From Escherichia coli 042 (lineage in GTDB: Bacteria; Pseudomonadota; Gammaproteobacteria; Enterobacterales; Enterobacteriaceae), in NCBI RefSeq assembly GCF_000027125.1, contig NC_017626.1: a DNA stretch of 64,000 nt; one strand, given 5' to 3'. Position 1 is the first letter of the stretch. The number at the start of each line of letters is the position of its first letter. Position numbers and translations under genes: made by a program. Under the pieces are notes generated by a model. It was not told the DNA's origin, ran no database searches, and saw only the letters and a list, made by a program, of their open reading frames with translations. This document shows positions 30,897-31,196 of this stretch, piece after piece.

Positions 30897-31196
30897 TTAT
30901 AACACCCCCATCACCTGCATTGATTTTTGCAGAGTTAAATCACCACAGGTATAAGCGTCTTGGTAAGCTTTATCCAGTTGCGCTTTCAAACAAGATTTAT
31001 CACAACCGTACATTAATGCAACCTCATCAATTACCATACATCTGGCATCTTTATAACTCATTTCTTTTCCAAAATGCTTTTCTTCTATTAGAGTGCCTGT
31101 AGCTGAGTGTAATGCACCATGTGAACCAGTACGATTGTCTTTTCCTTCCAGACAAATTGTAGGCGCTTTGCCTTCGGTATATTCCCCCCCCAGCAC
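30897..31196 (-). CDS. hypothetical protein fragment (99 aa), possible orphan toxin-tip remnant upstream of paralog B
   Basis: ORF with non-ATG start; G8 homopolymer (C8 on + strand ~31184-31191) at codons 3-5; stops in all frames further upstream. Confidence 0.3.
   Translation of the reverse strand: MLGGEYTEGKAPTICLEGKDNRTGSHGALHSATGTLIEEKHFGKEMSYKDARCMVIDEVALMYGCDKSCLKAQLDKAYQDAYTCGDLTLQKSMQVMGVL

Follow-up and report, generated by a model that had tools for sequence, protein, structure and literature searches.

A Tse7-family toxin remnant with a length-variable G tract beside retained predicted immunity genes in Escherichia coli

The 99-residue ORF at positions 30897-31196 of the window (the whole stretch of 64,000 nucleotides of the Escherichia coli chromosome analysed here) is very probably a non-functional 3′ remnant of a Tse7-family T6SS effector gene, in which a run of eight G residues is a neutral, hypermutable frameshift scar and beside which the immunity genes are the selectable cargo. 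Three toxin genes of one array are all destroyed at this locus and the three predicted immunity genes are full length: the first toxin lacks its 5′ ~1.2 kb, the second is down to 48 nt and the third down to its first 92 codons. The locus lies in an island between cusS (31565-33025, followed by cusR and cusCFBA) and nfrB (nfrA and nfrB together occupy 14704-19900) that 152 of the 5,426 complete E. coli genomes searched (~3%) carry, and it is a clear case of toxin loss with immunity retention, three toxins having been gutted in different ways. The main practical value is a correction of annotation: the 99-, 103- and 109-residue products that RefSeq names ‘HNH/endonuclease VII fold toxin-2 domain-containing proteins’ represent a single pseudogene with different tract lengths and should not be counted in inventories of T6SS effectors. 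Otherwise the remnant is a decayed representative of an effector family that is well known, the orphan-immunity island around it is of a familiar kind, and a specialist would find nothing unexpected here.

The ORF, its reading frame and its relation to intact toxins

The features of the remnant are the following:
31197-31245, minus strand: upstream stub homologous to intact toxins, with ATG 31223-31225 and then MPRSKYPTRKCW, in the ancestral frame
30897-31196, minus strand: 99-residue ORF with a GTG start (RefSeq WP_001305542.1)
31184-31191, minus strand (C8 on the plus strand): G8 run, polymorphic in length among isolates and a frameshift site
31107-31124, minus strand: HxxxH metal-binding motif, codons S-H-G-A-L-H, both histidines invariant in the protein alignment
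30930-30944, minus strand: 1-nt deletion, GATTT^AAC (~30937), leaving the last 12 codons of the ORF off the ancestral frame
30880-30929, minus strand: ancestral C-terminal tail NSAKINAGDGGVINDEDI, out of frame and ending in TGA 30880-30882

The ORF opens with GTG CTG GGG GGG GAA, the G8 run covering codons 2-5, much as the initial annotation had described it. Stops shut all three frames less than 45 nt 5′ of the tract (TAG 31215-31217 in the frame of the ORF, TAA 31229-31231, and a third-frame stop at 31234-31236), again as had been noted. The statement that there is no ATG start stands in so far as the ORF begins with GTG, but it overlooks an ATG at 31223-31225, in a different frame, that matches an internal methionine of intact toxins and is the annotated start in alleles with nine G residues; no convincing Shine-Dalgarno sequence precedes either the ATG or the GTG. 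The tract is alone among G/C runs of at least 8 nt in the 64-kb window, and with ~1.5 such runs expected per 64 kb at random (an i.i.d. estimate at 50% GC) it is by itself not beyond chance. Its significance derives from comparison with homologues, in that an intact relative has G6 at the same position. The ORF ends 25 nt short of the next gene, the 346-residue ‘paralog B’ (29831-30871).

The product of the ORF (WP_001305542.1) matches Pfam Tox-GHH2 (PF15635) at 32.9 bits (E=8.8e-8; gathering cut-off 25 bits), although only over profile positions 31-120 of 122, which supplies the toxin-domain homology that the initial annotation had proposed to look for. It shares 64-86% amino acid identity with the C termini of complete PAAR-like/Tox-GHH2 effectors and corresponds approximately to residues 418-504 of intact toxins of 530 residues. 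These intact relatives come from Salmonella and Escherichia whittamii, combine PAAR-like (DUF4150) and Tox-GHH2 domains and are encoded in vgrG-DUF6484-DUF2169-PRK06147 clusters, and each 530-residue effector gene is directly followed by a gene for a 346-residue predicted immunity protein homologous to paralog B; this, with the Pfam match, bears out the suggestion that the ORF sits where a toxin tip would be expected. In Salmonella enterica (locus L004) the order is VgrG, DUF6484, DUF2169, a 347-residue protein, a 538-residue PAAR-like + Tox-GHH2 toxin, a 342-residue immunity protein, a 530-residue PAAR-like + Tox-GHH2 toxin and a 346-residue immunity protein. A scan of reference genomes placed the closest intact relatives in E. 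whittamii, where the toxin of locus L019 is 86% identical to the ORF product and locus L020 is organized as in Salmonella, PRK06147-type gene included. When the Salmonella toxin was used as a tblastn query, residues 405-504 matched the window at 31232-30933 and residues 1-92 at 28628-28353, with nothing between; in blastn searches, positions 4655-6154 of L020 correspond to 31245-29759 of the window. A free-standing 123-residue Salmonella gene, suggested by the first protein search, which returned short fragments only, was rejected, the Salmonella DNA showing the end of a 530-residue ORF. NCBIfam has no match to the 99-residue ORF, to the PAAR-like stub or to any of the immunity genes, and sequence searches of solved structures with the repaired 109-residue product, the immunity protein and a full-length toxin gave no meaningful match.

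The family is typified by Tse7 (PA0099) of Pseudomonas aeruginosa, whose immunity protein is Tsi7 (PA0100). Tse7 is a DNase effector carried on VgrG1b, in which a linker joins an N-terminal DUF4150 (‘PAAR-like’, ‘PIPY’) spike-tip domain to a C-terminal Tox-GHH2 HNH/EndoVII nuclease; its loading partners are PA0096 (DUF6484), PA0097 (DUF2169) and PA0098 (PRK06147/TvpD), a class II Tvp set of synteny type A (PMC11883445, PMC13373197, PMC9846239). The remnant belongs to the same C-terminal family (PF15635), and the intact enterobacterial relatives share both the DUF4150 domain and the vgrG-DUF6484-DUF2169-PRK06147-effector-immunity order. In contrast, the window holds only the last ~100 codons, with two frameshifts and with neither DUF4150 in the ORF nor the GHH motif. 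There is also no vgrG: cusS is directly upstream of the remnant, vgrG, DUF6484 and DUF2169 are absent from the linkage, and a PRK06147 fragment is the only accessory sequence. The cognate immunity gene that stands immediately downstream in Tse7-type loci nevertheless has a counterpart here, the predicted 346-residue immunity gene that starts 8 nt after the ancestral stop. A further difference from Tse7 is an insert of ~36 residues between GHH and the rest of the domain, which is a feature of the intact enterobacterial toxins.

The signature motifs of Tox-GHH2 are s[AGP]HH and HxxxH (PMC3482391). All five intact toxins carry WEGKGCCPGQT[G/L]HHL ~37 residues ahead of the methionine that matches window position 31225; this GHH signature was not found in the E. 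coli remnant, where the corresponding stretch is without homology and has stops in all frames. HxxxH is the only Tox-GHH2 signature that the remnant keeps, and DNase activity is predicted to be absent, since the GHH motif is missing. Nor is the N-terminal DUF4150 domain part of the polypeptide, the only piece of it in the window being a separate 92-codon stub (within 28311-28625).

Alignment of the DNA with L019 and L020, together with the protein alignment, identifies three lesions in the E. coli copy. The first is a 5′ truncation that has removed everything before approximately residue 400, including the PAAR-like domain and the GHH block; DNA homology to intact genes begins at ~31245, and weak similarity is gone by ~31262-31275. 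The second is the tract itself: G8 is a +2 expansion of a G6 run within TGG GGG GAA (Trp-Gly-Glu) of L019, the flanks being identical to L019 for ~40 nt on each side. The expansion separates the ancestral internal methionine (31225) from the ORF; the ten codons before the tract (ATG 31225, MPRSKYPTRKCW) are the same as in L019, but lie in another frame than the 99-residue ORF. The third lesion is the 1-nt deletion at GATTT^AAC, just downstream of which there is also a 6-nt in-frame deletion relative to L019. The native tail NSAKINAGDGGVINDEDI is thus displaced from frame, and its TGA (30880-30882) lies 8 nt ahead of the ATG (30871) of the immunity gene, with a Shine-Dalgarno-like GAGGTG between them. 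The 5′ truncation, the two frameshifts and the absent GHH motif support the reading of the ORF as a remnant, which had been put forward as probable; the out-of-frame upstream codons, the second frameshift near the 3′ end and the fact that no tract length rescues the toxin are new relative to the initial annotation.

Within what is left, a conserved aspartate has been replaced (ARDMVI to ARCMVI), and dN/dS against L019 is 0.51, a value resting on only 18 substitutions (12 non-synonymous, 6 synonymous); pairs of intact toxins give 0.12-0.17. We note that one E. coli allele (P0051, on 36 contigs) has the G8 start, yet keeps the native tail and ARDMVID and is without the 1-nt 3′ deletion; it represents an earlier, intermediate stage of decay in other E. 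coli lineages.

A function of the short protein in itself at any tract length, perhaps as a nuclease fragment that binds DNA or titrates the immunity protein, seems highly improbable to us. The ORF is 100% identical in almost all of the 152 genomes, and the HxxxH helix and a conserved Cys-rich C-terminal region are kept. However, immunity genes and spacers vary just as little, and most differences between the two haplotypes on which the island occurs lie elsewhere; the identity of the ORF reflects how recently the island as a whole has spread and is no sign of selection on the ORF itself. Comparison with the nearest intact gene speaks against function as well, with its raised dN/dS, lost aspartate and frameshifted tail, and every tract allele alters the start codon and the N-terminus.

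Tract-length variation among isolates

Among the 152 complete genomes with the locus, the tract is G8 in 139, G7 in eight and G9 in five (four distinct assemblies for G9), so that tract-length variation, which the initial annotation had proposed to look for at the level of reads, is found across assemblies. The surrounding 80 nt show no difference other than tract length. PGAP calls a 99-residue ORF from the GTG in G8 alleles, one of 103 residues in G7 alleles and one of 109 residues, from ATG 31225, in G9 alleles. The G7 and G9 lengths each occur on two haplotypes, differing from the window by ~5-8 SNPs and ~142 SNPs, a pattern that points to recurrent events. In a collection of 15 billion proteins, contigs encoding the G8 product number at least 1000, against 188 for the G9 product and 90 for the G7 product.

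Several sequencing platforms are prone to error at G/C homopolymers, and one reading of these data is that the length differences are purely sequencing or assembly errors around a fixed G8 relic. Some of the calls certainly are errors. Apparent ‘G6’ E. coli alleles (a 108-residue product, on 64 contigs) were considered as a surviving in-frame ancestor and discarded as sequencing artefacts, every long homopolymer being compressed in all three of the loci examined (L022-L024), and one G7 assembly (FCI48) likewise has every long homopolymer nearby shortened. As a general explanation we nonetheless regard error as unlikely. Over ~12 kb of comparison with the window, the tract is the sole small indel in 10 of 11 variant (G7 or G9) loci, despite the A8, T9 and G6 runs that also lie near it and have no indels in those loci; G9 is longer than G8, whereas long reads usually compress homopolymers; and the G9 and G7 products come from many sources. 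The remaining G7 and G9 alleles are likely to be real, and the tract probably slips in nature, as is expected of an 8-nt G/C run under no selection. The alternatives that the initial annotation had offered for the homopolymer, a slipped-strand site or a relic, accordingly both hold: the tract is derived from G6, and it is G7, G8 or G9 among isolates. In the public ‘complete’ assemblies L022-L024 and L017, every homopolymer of at least six nucleotides near the locus is 1-2 nt short, which yields a spurious in-frame 108-residue ‘toxin’ together with broken cusB and immunity genes.

Homopolymer contingency loci, in which slipped-strand mispairing drives phase variation, are familiar from Neisseria, Haemophilus and Campylobacter among others. 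The E. coli locus resembles them in that a mononucleotide G/C tract close to the start of an ORF differs in length by 1 nt in either direction among isolates, and by the assemblies this is a length-polymorphic tract in a coding region. The tract might accordingly be a switch for a small HNH-derived protein made from ATG 31225, on at G9 or G6, with coupling or polarity perhaps modulating the downstream immunity genes. We think this very unlikely, even though the length varies recurrently on two haplotypes, G9 brings the ATG in frame to give a 109-residue ORF that PGAP annotates, and the 99-residue ORF stops only 25 nt short of the immunity gene. G9 (or G6) does link ATG 31225 to the ORF, but the resulting ‘on’ product still has neither a PAAR-like domain for delivery nor the GHH motif nor the native tail, and no tract length gives a functional product. 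The tract also originates in ordinary coding sequence (G6 in intact genes), neither start codon is preceded by a convincing Shine-Dalgarno sequence, GAGGTG gives the immunity gene a ribosome-binding site of its own, 139 of the 152 genomes carry the off-type G8, and the remnant is under relaxed constraint (dN/dS 0.51). What distinguishes the tract from contingency loci is that it is a recent expansion in a pseudogene with no functional length, and it resembles neutral microsatellite instability.

A variant of the same idea is that the unstable tract has been retained to tune the two downstream orphan immunity genes through translation of a leader ORF, by coupling or polarity; we give this hardly any credence. 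If it were true, E. coli lineages would vary heritably in their protection against the Tox-GHH2 toxins of Salmonella, E. whittamii or Kluyvera, and the tract would be a contingency switch acting on defence and not on attack. A simple consensus scan for a minus-strand sigma-70-like promoter between cusS and the ORF found none, a result that is uninformative. Read-through from cusRS into the immunity genes would have to cross a terminator-like hairpin at 31457-31440; this hairpin, which is followed by a T-run, lies on the minus strand (31440-31457) ~110 nt past the cusS stop.

The +2 change from G6 within the Trp-Gly-Glu codons to G8 uncoupled the last upstream methionine from the remainder of the sequence. 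On the preferred reading, a neutral scar, a G6 run can become an unstable G8 once selection on the frame is lost. The long unconstrained tract would then keep slipping by 1 nt in either direction during replication, giving G7, G8 and G9 alleles from which gene callers predict ORFs of 103, 99 and 109 residues. Since the delivery domain and the catalytic GHH histidines are missing from all of these products, tract length should have no toxin-related consequence.

Neighbouring toxin stubs and predicted immunity genes

Between the remnant and nfrB lie three predicted immunity genes and the traces of two further toxins:
29831-30871, minus strand: ‘paralog B’, 346-residue predicted immunity gene, intact; cognate partner of the remnant by synteny
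29720-29830, minus strand: spacer of 111 nt between the two 346-residue genes, with a mini-remnant of the second toxin
28679-29719, minus strand: second 346-residue predicted immunity paralogue, intact; dN/dS 0.14
28311-28625, minus strand: 104-residue ORF that keeps codons 1-92 of a third PAAR-like (DUF4150/PIPY) toxin, then truncated; Tox-PAAR-like, E=1.5e-11
27269-28279, minus strand: 336-residue, more distant immunity paralogue, intact; beta-propeller repeat protein in RefSeq
26865-27176, minus strand: C-terminal fragment (103 residues) of a PRK06147/TvpD-type T6SS accessory protein; 93.6% nucleotide identity to L020 3195-3397

All three genes in the immunity position are beta-propeller-like. 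Paralog B is 68-70% identical in amino acid sequence to the gene that follows the Salmonella toxin, and the 336-residue paralogue is 35% identical to the Salmonella 342-residue predicted immunity gene. Against their E. whittamii counterparts, dN/dS is 0.13 for paralog B and 0.14 for the second 346-residue gene. The 346-residue proteins, for which Pfam, NCBIfam and solved structures gave no match, are predicted to be immunity proteins on the basis of synteny and purifying selection. The second toxin survives only as its first 18 nt (ATGGAAACTAACGTTTAT, 29777-29760) fused to its last ~30 nt (29758-29729), ~1.55 kb having been cleanly deleted relative to E. whittamii L020 6136-7734, and the stub of the third toxin is 93.8% identical in nucleotide sequence to L020 3441-3713. 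We note that this stub and the PRK06147 fragment are ordered differently from the intact cluster. We also note that the 3′ ~560 nt of the two 346-residue genes, together with the spacers downstream of them (28601-29160 and 29753-30312), are ~97.5% identical, while the 5′ halves have diverged. The near-identity of the 3′ parts suggests recombination or gene conversion within the array, and the N-terminal half of these proteins may be the carrier of toxin specificity.

Immunity genes that are retained without their toxins are well known from orphan-immunity and acquired interbacterial defence clusters. The E. coli locus has this character in that its three toxins were lost in independent events beside three immunity genes that are still intact, and in that other E. 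coli strains carry a SMI1/KNR4 set at the cusS-nfrB position. It departs from it in that the cluster arose by decay of a resident effector array and is not a dedicated mobile defence island, and in that protection is predicted. The starting point was an ancestral tandem toxin/immunity array like the intact ones in Salmonella enterica and E. whittamii, and the island may have been kept because its immunity genes guard the cell from Tox-GHH2 toxins fired by neighbouring bacteria.

Orphan modules consisting of a toxin tip and an immunity gene also follow Rhs, CDI (cdiA-CT/cdiI) and other polymorphic-toxin genes (Zhang et al. 2012, PMC3482391). The locus shares with these a truncated toxin C-terminus ahead of an intact immunity gene, tandem diverged paralogous pairs, and IS elements and a SUKH-3 gene nearby. 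It might therefore be thought a stored cassette, held as in Rhs/CDI arrays for recombination onto a full-length effector and a switch of toxin, the more so as the intact arrays of Salmonella and E. whittamii have tandem toxin/immunity pairs with conserved recombination-prone segments; we find this the least credible of the readings discussed. The E. coli locus differs from orphan modules in having no main full-length gene in the genome and a decayed toxin part. Nowhere in the 5,426 complete E. coli genomes was there a place covering at least 80% of the full-length PAAR-like/Tox-GHH2 toxin, and PAAR-like DNA is otherwise confined, in strains with the island, to the 92-codon stub and a 54-nt scrap within the spacer. 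Upstream homology amounts to merely ~20-50 nt, and the GHH motif is gone and two frameshifts are present. With no full-length gene and no usable upstream homology, the module cannot be re-activated by recombination, and we return to the reading of the remnant as a pseudogene beside retained immunity genes.

The island also contains ISAs1-family and IS1 elements and a SUKH-3 immunity gene. A 777-bp IS1 (~25204-25980) splits an ISAs1/ISEc1-family transposase gene (ORFs 24712-25176, 25219-25722 and 26155-26625), and this insertion is missing from all 14 of the other strains compared at the site. The regions 20237-21740 and 24063-24524 hold the SUKH-3 immunity gene and three ORFs of 142-178 residues with no Pfam match, which may be additional orphan immunity genes. 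A ‘plasmid’ copy of the locus in strain GN06156 (NZ_CP095532.1, ‘plasmid unnamed1’, 14.6 kb, linear), 92% identical, was set aside; the record is a noisy duplicate, full of frameshifts, of the chromosomal region from cusS to the remnant, and is almost certainly an assembly artefact. The cusS-nfrB junction is variable among strains. In strain MFDS1019527 (NZ_CP169309.1, 14001-15854) it is occupied by a SMI1/KNR4 immunity-type gene and two small genes, and only the first 244 nt past cusS are shared with the window (31332-31575, 90% identity), a segment that is possibly a common leader or terminator.
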